This document shows, one piece after another, positions 2,856 through 37,889 of a DNA stretch of 39,161 nucleotides (positions are counted from its first letter, which is position 1; each line of letters begins with the position of its first letter). The stretch is from a virus (lineage: Duplodnaviria > Heunggongvirae > Uroviricota > Caudoviricetes). The position numbers were made by a program, and so were the translations under genes. Below the pieces are notes generated by a model, which did no database searches, was not told where the DNA came from, and saw only the letters and a program-made list of their open reading frames with translations. The stretch lies in IMG/VR virus record IMGVR_UViG_2706794670_000014; one strand, given 5' to 3'.

Positions 2856-2897
2856 GCCGCCGGTTTCTTGTTTTCCCTTACCGGCGGCATTTTTTTA
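2856..2897 (+). terminator. Rho-independent terminator-like hairpin with T-run on the plus strand
   Basis: GCCGCCGGT (2856-2864) / ACCGGCGGC (2880-2888) with a 15-nt loop, followed by ATTTTTTTA. The T-run is on the plus strand only. Confidence 0.55.
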
Positions 2898-2903
2898 TCC
2901 TGC

Positions 2904-4958
2904 TTACGCGTTATTCACTTCCACCACGATACTGTCAATCAGTACCGGGTAAGTCGCATTTTTAGTGATATCGGTCACGCGCAACTTGTCTGCCGTAAAC
3001 GTGCCGACCGGAGACTGCGACAGCATGAATGGTGTCCCGTCCTTACCATCAATGACCGGCGTCACCTCAATACTGTTGTTACCGGCAAAACGGAAGCCCA
3101 GCGTATGCCATTCGTTATTAAATGCGCCGAATGACCCCAGCTTCGTGTTCTGCGCCGTGTTTCCTTTGTGATACATCACGTTAAGGTCTGTGGCATCGCT
3201 CTGTACGTAGAACGATGCCAGCAGGTTATGACCGGCATTTCCTTCCAGAGTAACCCCTTGCGGCAGGGCAGAAACCGGCCAGTACAGCGCCAGTGCGTAC
3301 TGATTAGCCGTAAGCGCGCCATCGAGTTTAAAACGACAACTGACAAGACCACCTTTACCCAGCAGGTCCGCACCATTACCAGCATCATGCTCAAGGTACC
3401 AGGGGGCTCTTCCTGTTTCCTTGGTCAGTTTCATTGCCTTACCCCCGCTGGCTCCGGCATCATCCACGATTTGAGCCTTGCCACCTCCGGCAGCCCAACC
3501 CTGTGGTGTCAACCGTCCTTCAGACTCAGATGCCCGGTAAGCAAATAGCGTACTCATCGTCGTGGTGTCTGCGGGTGGCGTGGACGGTTTTGATGGTGTA
3601 TCAGGTGACGGCTTCTCATCCGGTGGTGTCACGGTCTGCCCACGCATCAGTTCAGCCGTGCGCCCTGCATGGAGCATAATAGCTGAGGCCAGACGGTCTG
3701 AAATGACGCCCCTGCGTGCCCATGAGCTGAAATGGCTGTCACGCTGTGTCGAAACAAAACTGCCCTGGGTTCGGGATGCTGCACCGTAATACCCGACAGC
3801 CACAATATCCGGGTCTTCCGCCGGAGCATTCGTTGGCGTGCTCTGTCCATTCTCATCCGTCAGGAACGGTACAAAGAAAATTTTCTGTGCTTCCTTGCCT
3901 TTGTAGCCACCGTATACTGCCTCATATTTATCGGTGCCAGCGTTTTTCCAGTAATACGTGGTATCACCGCAAATCCACGGCACCGTGGTGGCATTTCCAC
4001 TCACGCACTGCGCAGCAAGCGGAGCCAGGTCAGTTCTGAACTGCTGAACCATGGCCGTGAATAAACTATTATGCTGCTGGCTTCCTGAGGCAAGGTCTGC
4101 CTCTCCCTGCATCCAGACCACAGCCAGAAGTTTGTTTTTCGGGTTTTTCGCCAGCGCGACTTTGGTGCGGCTTACCAGGTCCTGATACAGAGGTTTACCG
4201 GCCCCCCAGCGTGAAGAATCAGCGGAAGCACCGCTGGCCTCACTGAATGAGCCGTCGGCTCCAGTGGTGAATGCTGACCCGCCACGACAACAGGGCACCA
4301 GAAGTATCCCGGCATTCTGTGGGATATAGGGAAGCAGTTTTTTGGCAATATGCAACCCCTGACCGACAGTCCCGTACTGGCCTTTTGCCAGATCAGCTTT
4401 CGGGTGGTTTATCCCGCTCATATCCTGAACATCATGCAGGCAGTGGTCTGCCGGAATGATGTCGTTGTATGTACACGACGTACCGTTGGGCGTTACCGTA
4501 CTGCGGCGTGCCAGTTGCTTAATGCGTGGGTCCGGGCGGTCAAACGAATCCGGTAACGGCAGCCCCTCGCCGTAGGCCATGCCATTTGACTGACCCGCGA
4601 GAATGACAACAAAGTAATATTCCGGCTCTGAACTGCTGCCATTCGTGCTACCGGAAGGCCCGGCGTTATCCGGTGCATTCCAGTCGGAGGGCGTGAGCGT
4701 TCCGGCCACGTCAGATGTGATTGGAATGATGCCAGTCACGCCTGAACTGGTGATTTCTGCACTGGGATTACCGGATACCGGCATTACCCATAATGGCTCT
4801 TTCGTGCTGAAGCGGATCACGCAGTCTGCGAAGGTGATCCCCCCTTTATTACCCGAAGGGCGGAAAGGGCTTTCAATAAATGCCACCGTGCCACCGGCAA
4901 CCTTGACTGAAAACTCTCCGGGCATGGCGGAGAGCATTTTCCACTTGGAGTCTGACAT
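2904..4958 (-). CDS. 684-aa protein with a sialate O-acetylesterase (SASA / SGNH hydrolase) domain, resembling prophage NanS-p-type esterases; likely cargo
   Basis: Conserved blocks VVILAGQSNGMAYGEG and VVWMQGEADLA match the catalytic-serine and second signature blocks of the SASA family. Long N- and C-terminal extensions. Sits between gin and com-mom, where Mu has no gene. Confidence 0.65.
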   Translation of the reverse strand: MSDSKWKMLSAMPGEFSVKVAGGTVAFIESPFRPSGNKGGITFADCVIRFSTKEPLWVMPVSGNPSAEITSSGVTGIIPITSDVAGTLTPSDWNAPDNAGPSGSTNGSSSEPEYYFVVILAGQSNGMAYGEGLPLPDSFDRPDPRIKQLARRSTVTPNGTSCTYNDIIPADHCLHDVQDMSGINHPKADLAKGQYGTVGQGLHIAKKLLPYIPQNAGILLVPCCRGGSAFTTGADGSFSEASGASADSSRWGAGKPLYQDLVSRTKVALAKNPKNKLLAVVWMQGEADLASGSQQHNSLFTAMVQQFRTDLAPLAAQCVSGNATTVPWICGDTTYYWKNAGTDKYEAVYGGYKGKEAQKIFFVPFLTDENGQSTPTNAPAEDPDIVAVGYYGAASRTQGSFVSTQRDSHFSSWARRGVISDRLASAIMLHAGRTAELMRGQTVTPPDEKPSPDTPSKPSTPPADTTTMSTLFAYRASESEGRLTPQGWAAGGGKAQIVDDAGASGGKAMKLTKETGRAPWYLEHDAGNGADLLGKGGLVSCRFKLDGALTANQYALALYWPVSALPQGVTLEGNAGHNLLASFYVQSDATDLNVMYHKGNTAQNTKLGSFGAFNNEWHTLGFRFAGNNSIEVTPVIDGKDGTPFMLSQSPVGTFTADKLRVTDITKNATYPVLIDSIVVEVNNA

Positions 4959-5032
4959 CGTCTTTTCTGCCTGTTTCTGAATTAAACAGAGTCAGAATAG
5001 CGACCGCTGAAAAATATGTGTTTTGCGGAAAT

Positions 5033-5063
5033 TCAAAAAAGCGTCACGGTACTTTTGGTGACG
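5033..5063 (-). terminator. Rho-independent terminator at the 3' end of gin
   Basis: On the minus strand: stem CGTCAC / GTGACG with a 10-nt loop, followed by CTTTTTTG. Confidence 0.55.
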
Positions 5064-32903: not shown

Positions 32904-33434
32904 TTATTTATTCAGTCCGGCGTCCTGTTCAAAAGGCTCGACATAAAAACTTTCAGCGCCTTTATTCACCTTGATACCGGCAATGCCTTTCACAGCATCC
33001 GGCTCCGCCAGGACGGCTTCCTTGTTCACTTCCTCTTTCGTGCGGATGAAACGCTCAAGCCCCATACGGCGCAGCATTTCAATCACACCTTCCACATCAC
33101 GGCTGACGCTGCATGATGGCGTTCCCAGCCGCCATGACACCGTTCCGGTGGTCAGATTGGCTGTTTTGGTTTTGCCGCCGTTCGTCAGCTCATCACGGTT
33201 GGTTTTGCACCAGTCCTGAATCCCTTTAAAAAGCACTTTGATTTGCTTTTTAAGATTTTCAATCTGCGGCGTATAACGGGCGGTGATTTCTGCCACTTCG
33301 TCATTCATCGCCGTTTCCAGGCGCAGCGCCTCTCGCTGAATATCTCCCAGGGTGCGGATATCACGGCTGACTTCTTCCCGGGTCTGCGGTGCCGCCTCGG
33401 CTGCGGCCTTTAATTTTGTAACGCGTTTAGCCAT
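32904..33434 (-). CDS. gam: Gam-like host-nuclease inhibitor (Ku-like DNA end-binding protein)
   Basis: Strong resemblance to Mu Gam along its length, including ...NRDELTNGGKTKTANLTTGTVSWR...RFIRTKEEVNKEA... Confidence 0.8.
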   Translation of the reverse strand: MAKRVTKLKAAAEAAPQTREEVSRDIRTLGDIQREALRLETAMNDEVAEITARYTPQIENLKKQIKVLFKGIQDWCKTNRDELTNGGKTKTANLTTGTVSWRLGTPSCSVSRDVEGVIEMLRRMGLERFIRTKEEVNKEAVLAEPDAVKGIAGIKVNKGAESFYVEPFEQDAGLNK

Positions 33435-33445
33435 TTTGTTTTTCC

Positions 33446-33739
33446 TTATTGCAGTGTGCCTGATGCTTTATGCACGCGGTGGCGTTTAATGATGGCATCC
33501 GCTCCAAAAGACTGTGCAGATGCCTGAAATTCCGCTGAGAGAAACTGAATAATTGCAGGACTGTGATACTGGAGAATACTTGCATAAACGTCACAGAGTG
33601 ACGTCGGCCTGTTATCCGTATCACGTTCTGTTTTCACATCCACTCCAATCTTTTCATGCACTTCAACACAGTCATTGCCTGCCAACTTTTCGTCATGCGA
33701 AACATGATTAAATTCAAAAATAACGCGTACTTTGCTCAT
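33446..33739 (-). CDS. Small early protein, paralogue A (97 aa from the MSKVRVIFEF start)
   Basis: ATG at 33739 with an AGGGG RBS, five nt after the stop of paralogue B. Shares the MSKV(V)R(I)IFE N-terminus with the upstream gene. Confidence 0.45.
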   Translation of the reverse strand: MSKVRVIFEFNHVSHDEKLAGNDCVEVHEKIGVDVKTERDTDNRPTSLCDVYASILQYHSPAIIQFLSAEFQASAQSFGADAIIKRHRVHKASGTLQ

Positions 33740-33743
33740 GGAA

Positions 33744-34016
33744 TTACCCCTGTTGATTAAATTCATTACCGTTAATAACCCCGGAAGCCATGCCTCTGTC
33801 TTTCATGAATGCACTGGCTTTCATTGCCACAAACTCTGCGAAGTTTCTGCTTTCTGCCAGCATAACCACCCCAAAAATCATGGCGGGTCCATTATCTTTC
33901 TTCTTTATTCCGGTTGAACGTATATCCAGACTTACCCCTCTGTGCGTGCTGCCATCAGAGTTTTTGCAGATAACATCTTCCTTGTATTCGAAAATAATGC
34001 GTACGACTTTACTCAT
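33744..34016 (-). CDS. Small early protein, paralogue B (90 aa)
   Basis: N-terminus MSKVVRIIFEY parallels the downstream paralogue. Confidence 0.45.
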   Translation of the reverse strand: MSKVVRIIFEYKEDVICKNSDGSTHRGVSLDIRSTGIKKKDNGPAMIFGVVMLAESRNFAEFVAMKASAFMKDRGMASGVINGNEFNQQG

Positions 34017-34294
34017 CCTCTGGTCCTCGTTCTGTTTGGATAACTGACCCGGCGTCTAACCTCACGGCAGAACCGAATCATGGCATTAAAGGCTTCTTCC
34101 TCCGTCACCGCTTCCGGTATCCCCGGAACCAGTAACTGCTCCTGTTCATCACGTCCATGACGCGCCATAACCTCAATCACATGCCGTACCGTGGCAGGCT
34201 TTCCGGCAACTATCGGCAATGCACCTTCCGGCAGGACGTAACCAAACTCAATAAGACCACTCGACCACGCCCATGCAATGAGATTTTTTTTCAC
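34013..34294 (-). CDS. Hypothetical early protein (93 aa)
   Basis: ORF in the early operon. Overlaps its neighbours by a few nt. Confidence 0.4.
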   Translation of the reverse strand: MKKNLIAWAWSSGLIEFGYVLPEGALPIVAGKPATVRHVIEVMARHGRDEQEQLLVPGIPEAVTEEEAFNAMIRFCREVRRRVSYPNRTRTRG

Positions 34295-34295
34295 C

Positions 34296-34562
34296 TCACA
34301 CCTCCCAGTAAACCGTGCAGCCGCTGATGCGGGTGGCCTTCACACGGCGGCGCAGGCCGTTGGTCTGTATGGTGATTTCAATTTCACCGGTTCCCTGCAC
34401 GTTGCCTACCGGCGGCGTGGTTTTCAGTGCAAAACGTTGCGGATAGCGCTTACTGCGTTCCAGTACCGCACCGGCAAGTTCGGTCAGACGGCGCGCGCTG
34501 TTCAGGGAGTCGAATAAATTCATTTTGTTACCGCAGGATTGCATATTCATATAACACCTCAT
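34296..34562 (-). CDS. Hypothetical early protein (about 80-88 aa, start ambiguous)
   Basis: Several closely spaced ATGs after the upstream stop. A GAGGTG RBS favours the second. Confidence 0.35.
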   Translation of the reverse strand: MRCYMNMQSCGNKMNLFDSLNSARRLTELAGAVLERSKRYPQRFALKTTPPVGNVQGTGEIEITIQTNGLRRRVKATRISGCTVYWEV

Positions 34563-34784
34563 TTAGCTGACTTGTTTCGCACCAACAGAACGGCATATTC
34601 CGCTGTAAACTTCTGTCGCACCTTCGCGATCAAGTCCGGCAGATATCACCATTCGTGTGCGGTCATTAAATTCAAAAAGTAAATCGCCACATTCTTTATT
34701 TTCGGCCAGTGAAATCACCTTCACGTTATCGAAATTAACCAGGTAAAAGCGTCCGTAAATATCAGGAATATTAAATACCGCCAT
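34563..34784 (-). CDS. Kil-like small early protein, assigned by position directly after B
   Basis: 73 aa from the ATG at 34784, which follows the B stop after two nt. Size and position match Mu kil; the sequence identity is not verified. Confidence 0.35.
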   Translation of the reverse strand: MAVFNIPDIYGRFYLVNFDNVKVISLAENKECGDLLFEFNDRTRMVISAGLDREGATEVYSGICRSVGAKQVS

Positions 34785-34786
34785 AA

Positions 34787-35719
34787 TCACACCTGTGAGA
34801 GTAATTCAGGGTTGGTATAAACCTCTTTAAAGGCCGCATTAATATGTTTTTCTGTCAGCGCCGCGCCTTCACCGCTGGCGGTGAGCCACGCCTGGTTAAG
34901 CGTATGTGTCAGAACGCGTAACGCTCCCGGCTTTTCAGCGATAGCCTGCATGACGGCCAGCTCGGCCTCACCACTGATCCCCCACGCCATGGCAATGGCC
35001 AGCACATCCGCCTTTTTGGCCTTGCGAAGTTGTTTTGTACGGGCAAGACGGCTGAACAGGCGCGATAAATCATCAAAGGCGCGGCGTCCACCTTTAAACA
35101 ATCCGCGCGGGTTACCAATAAGCACCATCCCGATCCCCGTGGCGTCCTGAATTGCCCGGAGTTGCTCCAGACCGTCAATACCAAGATGATCCGCCTCATC
35201 CACAATCACCAGTCCACGCGTTCCCATCAGGCGACGGCGGATGGCGCGGGATAATGCCCCTTTGTTCGCGCGGGTGTAATCAATCCCCAGCGCATCGGCC
35301 AGCTCCAGCAGACACTCCGTGACGCTGGAGTGCGCGGGTGACAGGGTGATCATCCAGGTGTTTGGTTGCTCCTGGCAGTAATTACGGGCAGTGGCCGTTT
35401 TACCCACACCCGGTACGCCCACAATAACGTTAATACAGCCCATCAGGCGAACCGCCTGAAACAGTGCGCGCAGCTCCTGGACTGTCTGAGTTTCCACAAA
35501 CTGCGGCGGTTCCGGCAGTGCGCTTTGTTTATTCCAGTTCTCATACCAGGAGCGCAGGGAAGCAGCCACAGCAGCGTTATCGCCTTTATATTTTCCCTTA
35601 CGGAAAGCCGATAATGTGCCGTCGGAAATTCCCGCCTCTCTGGCGATGGCATACTGCGTCAGTACGCCGCCATCAATAAGTTCATCAATGGTCTTGATTA
35701 CATCGTTAATATCGGTCAT
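34787..35719 (-). CDS. B: Mu B-like ATP-dependent target DNA activator
   Basis: Shares LPEPPQFVETQTV, the Walker A motif GVGKT, VIVDEADHLG and QKPGALR with Mu B. ATG at 35719 with GAGGTG RBS; the ORF track starts at an upstream GTG. Confidence 0.85.
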   Translation of the reverse strand: MTDINDVIKTIDELIDGGVLTQYAIAREAGISDGTLSAFRKGKYKGDNAAVAASLRSWYENWNKQSALPEPPQFVETQTVQELRALFQAVRLMGCINVIVGVPGVGKTATARNYCQEQPNTWMITLSPAHSSVTECLLELADALGIDYTRANKGALSRAIRRRLMGTRGLVIVDEADHLGIDGLEQLRAIQDATGIGMVLIGNPRGLFKGGRRAFDDLSRLFSRLARTKQLRKAKKADVLAIAMAWGISGEAELAVMQAIAEKPGALRVLTHTLNQAWLTASGEGAALTEKHINAAFKEVYTNPELLSQV

Positions 35720-35801
35720 ATTATTCACCTCGCTTGAGACAGCATTCTCCGAGACTGAAACCTCAAATAACCTGAGTCACCCCTCGGGTTATTTTTTTAT
35801 T

Positions 35802-37889
35802 TCAGGCCAGCGGATCACTTTCTTTTAATTTCGCTTCGAGCAGTTGCAATCCCCGCTGGAAATTACGCTCGTATTCTTCATCAGGTTCATCGTCAGCGAC
35901 CGGTTGCTGAACGGTCACCGTATTACCCACAGGGCGGTATATGTTTTCCAGCCAGGGCTCCTGCGGCTTGTGCTCCAGCACGTTGACAACCTCATCCTCG
36001 GCATCACGGATTTTTTCCTCTGCGCGTTTACGCATGCCTTTAAGGCGCTGCTGCTGTTTGTAGTATTCCGCGCTGACAGGGAAGGCTTCGCGTTTATTGC
36101 CGTCCCATACCGCCTCGCAAATCACGCTGCCATCCGGGCGGCGCACGGTAATTCGTTCGGCATCATGAATGTCATAGCTGATAAGTACCTTACGGCCATG
36201 CTCGTCACGCAGCTCGGGCGCGTAGTAAATATTATTCAGCCAGCGTATTTCACAGCGTCTTACAGGGCGCTCCACCATCGGCCGGAACATATCCCGCAGT
36301 TCAACATCGGACAGCCATTCAATTTCCGTGTCCTCTTCCGCCAGGCGTTTTTTTCTGAACTCCGCCGGGCTGTAATGTTTACCGTTCGGCTTCATGGGTA
36401 ATTCATCGTGCGGCCGGTTGTTGTACCACTCAACACCGTCACGAATGGCATCAATCAGTTCAGACCAGGACGGTAAATCACGCATCGCTGACTGCTGCCG
36501 GGCGTTCAGCCGTTTGCCCTGTTGCAGGGCACTGAATGCCGAGCGTAAATCGCGGTTGGTTTTACGTAACGTCTCGCGATCTGCTCCTTTCCCGAAATAG
36601 GTGCGGTATTTACGGGCTATGCGCATCGGTAATGTGCGGTTAAGCCGTTCGATAATGCCCCGTCCCTGCGGATTACCGGCAATCCCTGTCGGGTGATTAA
36701 TCCCCAGTCGTGGCAGTATCCCCACAATCTCCTTATCCAGGACGTCGGCGGTTTCCCCGGAGCCATTATCCGAGTAATACAGAAACGGTTTGCCATGATG
36801 GCGAATACCGTGCTGTATGGCACCGGCTACGGCGAAAACATTTTCAGCCAGGTCAAGGCTCCAGCCCACCACAAAGCGCGTGCCACCGTCGATAACAAAG
36901 GTCACTTCCGGTGCGAATGGCCGCCCGTGAACCGGGTGCGCGCATTTCAGCTTCATGCCGTGACCGTCACCAATCCAGACATAATTCACCGGCATTCTGG
37001 ACCAGTCGCGGCGCGTGAATCCCTCAAGCTGACGGTATTCACTGCCAGTTACCCGGCCTTTTTGTTTCACCACTTCCGGCAGTTTCTTCATTGCGCGGCG
37101 AATGGTGTCATAAGAGGGCATGATATCGAGCATATAAGGCTCATCAGCGTGCCGGTGCTGCCATTCAGCAACAAAATCCTCGTAAGCCTCGGTCATTGGT
37201 CGGCCGTTTGACTGGCGATACTGCGCCAGAAATTCGGGCAGCCAGTTAATATCTTCGGCTTTTATTTCCTGGCGTTTACCCGGTGCCAGTAAAAGCAGGC
37301 GTTCAGCGGCGTTCTGTGCCTTGTTAAAGGCCGCAATCCAGCGTTTCAGCGTGATTTCACTCAACGCGCGGCTGTTTCCCTTTTTGGCGTTCGCCGTCTC
37401 AACCATTGCCACAATGCGCTCGTCCAGTTGTGATCGTGCCAGGCTGTTAACGAGGAACCGGATAGCTTTAGCGCAGCTGAAACCGGGTTGTTGCGTGAAT
37501 TTCAGCACCTCACTGACGATCGCAATGCGTGCGTCTGCCACCTGGCGCTGGTTTTCAGTCAGGGCATTGAGGCGTTCGACCATCAGTTGTGGTGATCCGC
37601 GATATGCCTCCACCGCATCAACCACGGCAGACGAGCGTCTGGCCTTTGTCACCACCGGAGCCGGTGATTCATCGGCTTTTTGCGTCATCAGTTGCAGGGC
37701 ATAACGTTCGCGTAATGCCTGCTGTGTCACTTCAGGTAAACAGTCAATGCTGTATTCAAAACCTTTAGCGCCTTTCTTGCGGCGTCTGCTGGTTTCGCTG
37801 GTTGCATACTTCCTGATTGAATAGCGAACGCCTTGCTCCGTTCCCGGCATCCCCGGTAATCCAACCAGTTCTTTAACTGAAGCAAACAT
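35802..37889 (-). CDS. A: Mu A-like DDE transposase
   Basis: 695 aa with an N-terminal winged-helix-like region, a DDE core of Mu-transposase type and an acidic C-terminus. Followed by B. Confidence 0.9.
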   Translation of the reverse strand: MFASVKELVGLPGMPGTEQGVRYSIRKYATSETSRRRKKGAKGFEYSIDCLPEVTQQALRERYALQLMTQKADESPAPVVTKARRSSAVVDAVEAYRGSPQLMVERLNALTENQRQVADARIAIVSEVLKFTQQPGFSCAKAIRFLVNSLARSQLDERIVAMVETANAKKGNSRALSEITLKRWIAAFNKAQNAAERLLLLAPGKRQEIKAEDINWLPEFLAQYRQSNGRPMTEAYEDFVAEWQHRHADEPYMLDIMPSYDTIRRAMKKLPEVVKQKGRVTGSEYRQLEGFTRRDWSRMPVNYVWIGDGHGMKLKCAHPVHGRPFAPEVTFVIDGGTRFVVGWSLDLAENVFAVAGAIQHGIRHHGKPFLYYSDNGSGETADVLDKEIVGILPRLGINHPTGIAGNPQGRGIIERLNRTLPMRIARKYRTYFGKGADRETLRKTNRDLRSAFSALQQGKRLNARQQSAMRDLPSWSELIDAIRDGVEWYNNRPHDELPMKPNGKHYSPAEFRKKRLAEEDTEIEWLSDVELRDMFRPMVERPVRRCEIRWLNNIYYAPELRDEHGRKVLISYDIHDAERITVRRPDGSVICEAVWDGNKREAFPVSAEYYKQQQRLKGMRKRAEEKIRDAEDEVVNVLEHKPQEPWLENIYRPVGNTVTVQQPVADDEPDEEYERNFQRGLQLLEAKLKESDPLA

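Follow-up and report, generated by a model that had tools for sequence, protein, structure and literature searches.

Two small genes between kil and gam of an Escherichia coli Mu-like prophage appear to be diverged tandem paralogues of the Mu gp7 (E6/gnarl2) family

The window analyzed herein is a 39,161-nucleotide (nt) stretch of DNA from a virus of the class Caudoviricetes (IMG/VR record IMGVR_UViG_2706794670_000014), and the locus in question lies in the early region of a transposable, Mu-like prophage from Escherichia coli. The genes of the window follow each other in the order transposase, MuB, a 75-amino acid (aa) gene, a kil-like gene, a 93-aa gene, A, B, gam and a gp11-like gene. The subject of this report is the pair A and B, for which an earlier reading of the letters and their translated open reading frames (ORFs), the sequence-only reading, had proposed two adjacent paralogous genes of 90 and 97 aa. 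Both ORFs are present, and both lie on the minus strand, which that reading had left unstated (Table 1). In an identical prophage of E. coli strain 600029, the RefSeq annotation by the Prokaryotic Genome Annotation Pipeline (PGAP) has exactly these two coding sequences (CDS), and labelled both as hypothetical proteins. On balance, A and B appear to be very diverged tandem paralogues (~20% identity) of a small accessory family that resides between kil and gam, and whose founder is gp7 of Mu.

Table 1. Features of the A/B locus and of the neighbouring early genes (positions in the window)
Feature	Position	Strand	Description
Gene A	33744-34016	minus	90 aa, starts MSKVVRIIFEY (MSKVVRIIFEYKED..., MSKVVRIIFEYKEDVICKNSDG...); from ORF and translation; PGAP CDS WP_000049428.1; phrog_4107, E=1.7e-54; small early protein, probable diverged member of the Mu gp7/E6 (gnarl2) family
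Gene B	33446-33739	minus	97 aa, starts MSKVRVIFEF (MSKVRVIFEFNHV..., MSKVRVIFEFNHVSHDEK...); from ORF and translation; PGAP CDS WP_000049310.1; phrog_2230, E=1.8e-38; small early protein, probable member of the Mu gp7/E6 (gnarl2) family
N-terminal strand of A (MSKVVRIIFEY)	33984-34016	minus	first 11 codons; 19-nt repeat copy at 33986-34004; invariant in the A family
N-terminal strand of B (MSKVRVIFEF)	33710-33739	minus	first 10 codons; 19-nt repeat copy at 33712-33730
A-B junction	33740-33751	minus	Shine-Dalgarno-like AGGGG (33747-33751), TAA (33744-33746), spacer TTCC (33740-33743); direct reading
gam	32904-33434	minus	host-nuclease inhibitor; Pfam Phage_Mu_Gam, E=5.5e-42; conserved downstream anchor
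93-aa early gene	34013-34294	minus	phrog_1518, labelled 'host nuclease inhibitor', E=3.8e-43; stop overlaps start of A
Kil-like early gene	34296-34562	minus	phrog_2679, 'Kil protein for bacterial septation inhibition', E=7.8e-46; conserved landmark at the upstream end of the interval between kil and gam
75-aa gene	34563-34790	minus	directly after MuB; phrog_3375 (unknown function)
MuB-type ATPase	34787-35728		Phage-MuB_C
Transposase	35802-37889

The two genes are closely packed (...CAG GGG TAA TTCC ATG). A stop-to-start gap of five nt with a ribosome-binding site had been claimed for this junction; the gap is actually 4 nt, and a Shine-Dalgarno-like sequence does exist, located within the end of gene A. 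Counted from the final codon of A to the start codon of B, the offset is 7 nt, and it does not change in any of the IMG/VR loci that possess both genes. On the upstream side, the start codon of A overlaps the stop codon of the 93-aa gene (ATGA), and on the downstream side, gam starts 11 nt beyond the TAA stop of B.

The shared N-terminal strand is confirmed: allowing for a one-residue indel, the two proteins agree at nine of ten positions (p ~2e-4 by shuffling). At the DNA level, the 5' ends of both genes carry a 19-nt direct repeat, 17 of whose 19 positions are identical and whose copies are spaced 274 nt apart. Among the seven degenerate codons shared, three differ at the third position (AGT/AGC, GTC/GTA and TTC/TTT), and therefore the N-terminal conservation acts at the level of the peptide and does not reflect a recent copy. 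These codon differences, together with conservation of the peptide throughout the families (the strand of B is nearly invariant across the B family, including alleles with only 57-60% identity to the window copy), rule out a recent gene conversion or an RNA/DNA element as the origin of the 5' identity. A direct comparison of the two proteins by BLASTP was marginal, with 22% identity over 76 residues (E=6e-4).

Close relatives in E. coli make up almost the whole of the A and B families. Word-indexed searches of 5.8 billion proteins returned close E. coli relatives only, and the A profile, run with HMMER in full against 1.84 billion representative proteins, returned nothing outside the A family. 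A tblastn search of 50,697 phage records with A and B matched only two Stx phages, each with an inserted copy of the same Mu-like element. Pfam contains no family for A, B or Mu gp7 (at E<=1 for A and B). More distant homologues were sought by using Gam as an anchor: the kil-gam intervals were fetched from Mu-like prophages of 80 other species, as well as from Mu, PhiKM, SuMu, AFS-2018a and JBD93, and the family profiles were searched against all 3992 ORFs of these loci. An ORF of 100 aa in Edwardsiella anguillarum (MVRVVFDFHV..., locus L086), directly upstream of gam, was recognized by the profiles of both families (B, 3.7e-6; A, 8.7e-4). Two further bridging ORFs were found in Kluyvera genomosp. 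3 (L093; MAKVIIELTRDF...) and in an Enterobacteriaceae isolate (L085; MAKVIIEITRDF...). Each of the three loci contains one such gene, of 85-100 aa, with the same order of motifs, which adjoins gam on its upstream side or lies one gene off. In Kluyvera, as in Edwardsiella, this gene falls within the kil-gam interval. The identity of these genes to A or B is 12-29%. In Edwardsiella, the order MuB, kil, a homologue of the 93-aa gene, a single gp7-like gene and gam is that of the window less one gene. Queried against IMG/VR, the Edwardsiella and Kluyvera proteins matched only themselves.

With the three bridging sequences added, the B profile recovers residues 1-78 of A at E=1.9e-6, and residues 12-90 of A alone still score 13 bits against this profile (conditional E 2e-5). 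When each family was left out in turn, it was recovered by a profile of the others as the top match outside the training set (A, 1.9e-5; B, 2.8e-6; Mu gp7, 1.1e-3; Kluyvera type, 3.9e-7; Edwardsiella, 1.3e-11), with the best non-members at 0.008-0.13, the latter value in the run that omitted gp7. A profile built without A and B, from the Mu gp7 family, Kluyvera, Enterobacteriaceae and Edwardsiella, detects A at 2.6e-5 and B at 5.5e-5 among the 3992 ORFs, over ~72-78 residues. Copies of A and B deprived of their first 10-11 residues retain 12-19 bits against the profiles. Moreover, among decoys in which the N-terminus was kept and the remainder shuffled, the real score was reached by none of 1000 for A, none of 1000 for B and one of 1000 for gp7. 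In profile-profile comparisons with hhalign, an independent method, the profile lacking A and B matches A with a probability of 91% (72 columns, residues 5-79 of A) and B with 96% (71 columns); the gp7 family matches a profile of A, B, Kluyvera and Edwardsiella with 93% (73 columns), and B matches a profile including A with 95.8% over 77 columns. The similarity is thus not limited to the first ten residues, and extends over ~75 residues, with the truncation and decoy controls both holding. Restriction to those ten residues is part of what the sequence-only reading had named as refuting it, and its interpretation survives this check. Judged from these sequence comparisons, A and B are very probably homologous over ~75 of their 90-97 residues and real tandem paralogues. 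The single-copy homologues that the sequence-only reading had proposed to look for in other Mu-like phages exist in Edwardsiella, Kluyvera, Enterobacteriaceae and Mu, and its remark that a tandem pair is unusual is borne out, as every clear homologue in other genera is a single copy.

A B-alone profile also matches the Gam proteins of the Symbiopectobacterium, Brenneria and Dickeya prophages (L120, L113 and L092; E 4e-4 to 0.03). Behind these matches is a short helical motif, YHSPxIxQL, at positions 33560-33600 of the window (residues ~50-66 of B); the Gam of the window reads RYTPQIENL at this place. The likeness is probably due to chance, though B and gam are neighbours, and the Gam proteins were excluded from the profiles.

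The N-terminal strand, with the consensus M-x-[KR]-V-[IV]-[IV]-[FI]-[ED], is the most conserved element of the family, which is why it stood out in the first place. It takes the form VRIIFEY in A, VRVIFEF in B, VRVVFDF in Edwardsiella, and AKVIIEI/L in Mu and Kluyvera. Three columns are nearly invariant (I8, E10 and G75 in A numbering), the glycine being conserved after the helix. A and B fit the family in size (about 85-100 aa), in the N-terminal strand and in the post-helix glycine.

Mu gp7 (NP_050611.1, also E6 or Mup07; PHROG 10252) is encoded at positions 4784-5047 of NC_000929, between kil/gp6 and gp8/gp9/gam. Like A and B, it belongs to the early operon between kil and gam, is of a similar size (87 versus 90 and 97 aa), and displays a M-x-K-V-hydrophobic-hydrophobic-E strand, a hairpin, an acidic or glycine-rich loop, a hydrophobic helix and a conserved glycine; the profile-profile probability reaches 91-96% when the bridging sequences are included. 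Unlike A and B, it is present in a single copy, and its identity to either of them is only 17-24%. Membership of A and B in the Mu gp7 family is, on these sequence grounds, probable. The single-copy genes of Edwardsiella, Kluyvera and the Enterobacteriaceae isolate resemble the pair in their order of motifs and in their place near gam, and differ in being one rather than two. PHROG 2230, a family of unknown function in an independent curated library, supports this grouping, as it matches B end to end, the B alleles of 57-60% identity, the three single-copy genes (Kluyvera, 2.4e-15; Enterobacteriaceae, 4.3e-13; Edwardsiella, 3.6e-9) and, weakly, Mu gp7 (0.009, residues 1-78). A, in contrast, is filed in PHROG 4107, and its link to the others was made here through custom profiles.

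Complete E. coli genomes contain gene A in 271 places and gene B in 274, almost always together, and a 2.2-kb segment of the region is present in 233 of the 5426 genomes (~4%), many of them O157:H7. The two genes are likewise almost always paired, with an unchanged offset, in 78 IMG/VR loci. They are the most variable genes of the early segment compared: identity to the window copy is 79-100% for A (median 81%) and falls into two allele classes for B (92-100% and 57-60%), the corresponding medians being 99% for MuB, 100% for kil and 98% for gam. The ratio of nonsynonymous to synonymous substitutions (dN/dS) is 0.26-0.39 for diverged allele pairs of A and of B and 0.12-0.20 for the two closest pairs of A, compared with 0.01-0.16 for gam. 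A and B are real coding genes under purifying selection, yet evolve fast. Variation is concentrated in the hairpin (~residues 12-37) and the C-terminal tail, whereas conservation marks the first strand and central loop-helix. Alleles of A and B are freely combined, which makes the region a recombination mosaic, and flanking genes have been swapped too.

A few loci depart from the paired arrangement. B without A occurs at ~3 of the 274 places. In one IMG/VR locus (L076, IMGVR_UViG_2654587996_000001, positions 3800-4200, equivalent to 33446-34300 of the window), only B is present; the start codon of B directly follows the final ~66 nt of the 93-aa gene, and A together with most of the 93-aa gene is gone. 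An E. coli protein of 67 aa from NCBI (P0030, equivalent to 33446-34016) is a fusion of residues 1-49 of A with residues 80-97 of B at a shared 'FG', that is, an internal deletion across the pair. Three frameshifted variants of B (P0052, P0061 and P0063) run into the frame of the minus-strand ORF at 33427-33624 of the window.

What is known of the family comes from Mu gp7. In the study of Silas et al., NP_050611.1 was tested as orf63 and named gnarl2 (PMC12373910; bioRxiv 10.1101/2023.04.06.535777). Its expression downshifts the O-antigen bands, and in two wild strains, ECOR1 and ECOR22, it makes infection by T5 rise 1e5- to 1e6-fold. The effect is phenocopied when O-antigen genes are disrupted. 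The protein was regarded as too small for an enzyme, affinity purification-mass spectrometry (AP-MS) gave no target, and the name was termed tentative (PMC12373910). The O-antigen phenotype has been reported for the Mu protein only, and not for A or B. Other small non-enzymatic modifiers of O-antigen, namely gnarl1, gnarl3 (which binds GalU) and Iap of Pseudomonas phage D3, offer an analogy of mechanism only. If the functional reading holds, A and B would resemble these as small proteins that interfere with a host envelope-biosynthesis enzyme. Argued by analogy, a gnarl2-like function of A and B in O-antigen modification is possible, although somewhat short of an even chance.

A number of results weigh against the interpretation of A and B as gp7-type paralogues with such a function. 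Direct pairwise evidence between A and B is weak, as the E value of the BLASTP match is owed largely to the N-terminus; once 10-11 residues are taken off that end, the top local alignment stays collinear, but with only p=0.04. hhalign of the shallow A and B family alignments gave a probability of 83% covering residues 1-34 only. PHROGs separates A from B, and A gives no match to phrog_2230 at E<=1. BLASTP of A with Mu gp7 gave no alignment, and hhalign of the shallow families with gp7 gave only 1-10% when the bridging sequences were left out, so that the case for homology depends on three bridging sequences and on MAFFT alignments at ~20% identity. The identity between A and B (18-22%) is no higher than that of either to homologues from other genera (12-24%), which leaves a duplication in place as a candidate origin. 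For structure prediction, which had been suggested as a check together with pairwise alignment, AlphaFold2 on shallow alignments gave a predicted local distance difference test (pLDDT) score of 54 for A and 56 for B, too low for a comparison of folds. In these low-confidence models, the strand-strand-helix order is the same, with a pair of long strands at the N-terminus ahead of one long helix, which would fit a shared architecture. A Foldseek search of the viral models in BFVD with the B model returned noise only. Finally, transfer of function from gnarl2 spans 17-24% identity, and the lipopolysaccharide (LPS) gel for gnarl2 was n=1 (PMC12373910).

How A and B may be expressed can be read in part from their surroundings. 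The ATGA overlap between the 93-aa gene and A suggests translational coupling. No promoter-like sites were found on the minus strand from MuB to gam, and the sole terminator-like match on this strand is weak and lies inside the MuB gene. Together, the ATGA overlap, the 4-nt spacer and the lack of an internal promoter-like site are consistent with one early operon and coupled translation. A and B would accordingly be transcribed within the long early (Pe) operon, and would be translated in a coupled chain that leads from the 93-aa gene through A and B to gam. Their synthesis would begin soon after induction or infection; lysogens might also make small amounts, in line with what has been reported for the early transcript of Mu. 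Each product is predicted to be a ~10-kDa cytoplasmic protein with an N-terminal beta-hairpin and a long helix, too small for an enzyme, which, by analogy with gnarl2, may act as a small binding protein on a host factor and thereby alter the synthesis of O-antigen or LPS. Such a change could, for example, exclude superinfecting phages. The N-terminal strand and the central helix would serve as a scaffold, while the hypervariable hairpin and C-terminal tail would confer specificity, and two diverged copies with several alleles each may allow the prophage to cope with polymorphic host targets.

The sequence-only reading had put forward a diversification of host targeting. This is plausible, given the hypervariability of both genes and the place of the O-antigen-modifying gnarl2 in their family. 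An improbable extension of this idea is a two-component specificity system, in which both proteins would dock through the conserved first strand and the central helix on the same class of host envelope-biosynthesis protein while their hypervariable hairpins and tails read different polymorphic variants of it, or in which they would form a heterodimer. If this were true, one Mu-like prophage could remodel O-antigen by non-enzymatic means across many serotypes of E. coli, in what would amount to the gnarl2 mechanism, duplicated and with its alleles shuffled.

A different native role for members of the gp7 family, such as another host-takeover or anti-defence function or a semi-essential task of Mu, is a live if minority possibility; the gnarl2 phenotype would then be an indirect effect of overexpression. 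The rest of the semi-essential early region of Mu has been described as largely uncharacterised (PMC3820752), the immediate neighbours act on cell division (kil) and DNA ends (gam), and the missing AP-MS target and the tentative name of gnarl2 fit this possibility as well. A PDB profile search gave no reliable match to a solved structure, its best hit being a partial match to a 455-aa glycosyltransferase at E=0.025, below significance. On the other hand, the sole experimental phenotype in the family is the shift of O-antigen bands with sensitisation to T5, seen in two wild hosts and phenocopied by disruption of O-antigen genes, and neither A nor B matches any of the known defence and anti-defence models of PADLOC.

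The pair may also be homologous without having arisen by duplication in this phage, if recombination, e.g. an unequal exchange at the 5' ends, had juxtaposed two long-diverged gp7-like alleles. Since A resembles B no more than either of them resembles the homologues of Edwardsiella, Kluyvera and Mu, either the duplication is old or the pair was assembled by recombination of long-diverged alleles. The mosaic nature of the region, with its freely combined alleles and swapped flanks, makes the latter conceivable, and the conserved 5' segment offers a site for crossover. Nonetheless, no phage was found with an A-type gene alone at this position, and A, B and Edwardsiella share VR[VI][IV]F[ED][FY] versus AKVIIE in Mu and Kluyvera, which fits an old duplication within one sublineage. 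Given their shortness and divergence, these sequences cannot support a reliable tree. Weighing these points, we consider juxtaposition by recombination a minority possibility, though a substantial one.

That A and B have in common just a duplicated or recombined 5' end (~30 nt, covering the start region and the first strand), with unrelated bodies and different folds, the outcome by which the sequence-only reading would have been refuted, is very improbable and is largely refuted here: such an origin would account for the 34-residue hhalign match, for the 19-nt stretch as the sole DNA repeat, for the two separate PHROGs and for the use of the shared start region as a junction, as in L076, yet the truncated proteins are recognized by profiles built without them, the N-terminus-keeping decoys fail to match the real scores, the alignments are collinear over 71-78 residues, and the synonymous differences in the shared codons oppose a recent copy of the DNA.

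The reading of A and B as diverged paralogues of the gp7 type gives a place in the Mu E6/gnarl2 family to two hypothetical proteins that occur in ~4% of the complete genomes of E. coli, including many O157:H7 strains. E6/gnarl2 is among the few semi-essential early genes of Mu with any reported phenotype. As PHROGs 4107, 2230 and 10252 would belong together, the family is wider than the libraries record. The pair is a new duplicated member of a known, poorly understood accessory family and not a new kind of system, and its use lies in annotation and as a handle on the specificity of gnarl2. Two copies of ~20% identity, each with several alleles and both in one operon, constitute a natural experiment that could help to find the host target of gnarl2-type proteins and the determinants of their specificity.

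Several observations on neighbouring or similar genes are added here. In a prophage of Dickeya oryzae (L092, positions 2874-3134), an 86-aa ORF (MGKIVISIEQKSED...) is a borderline member of the family (E 0.008-0.03); it is a single copy and is located before the kil-like gene instead of after it. In Pantoea sp. Eser (L106, SZZY01000001.1, positions 2885-3511), the stretch from a kil-like gene to gam contains a tandem row of three ORFs (69-75 aa), each with a short hydrophobic N-terminal strand, an acidic loop and a helix. These ORFs look similar to A and B, but fall below significance and were not counted as a second tandem case; they could be an independent tandem array, or unrelated. Homologues of the 93-aa gene are kept beside gam in Edwardsiella and at two other Enterobacterales loci, while about one-third of the E. 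coli loci in IMG/VR carry no full-length copy (>=85% of its length), the gene being missing, truncated or replaced. The 75-aa gene is hypervariable too (76-100% identity among otherwise near-identical prophages), and may thus represent a further hotspot for accessory genes.

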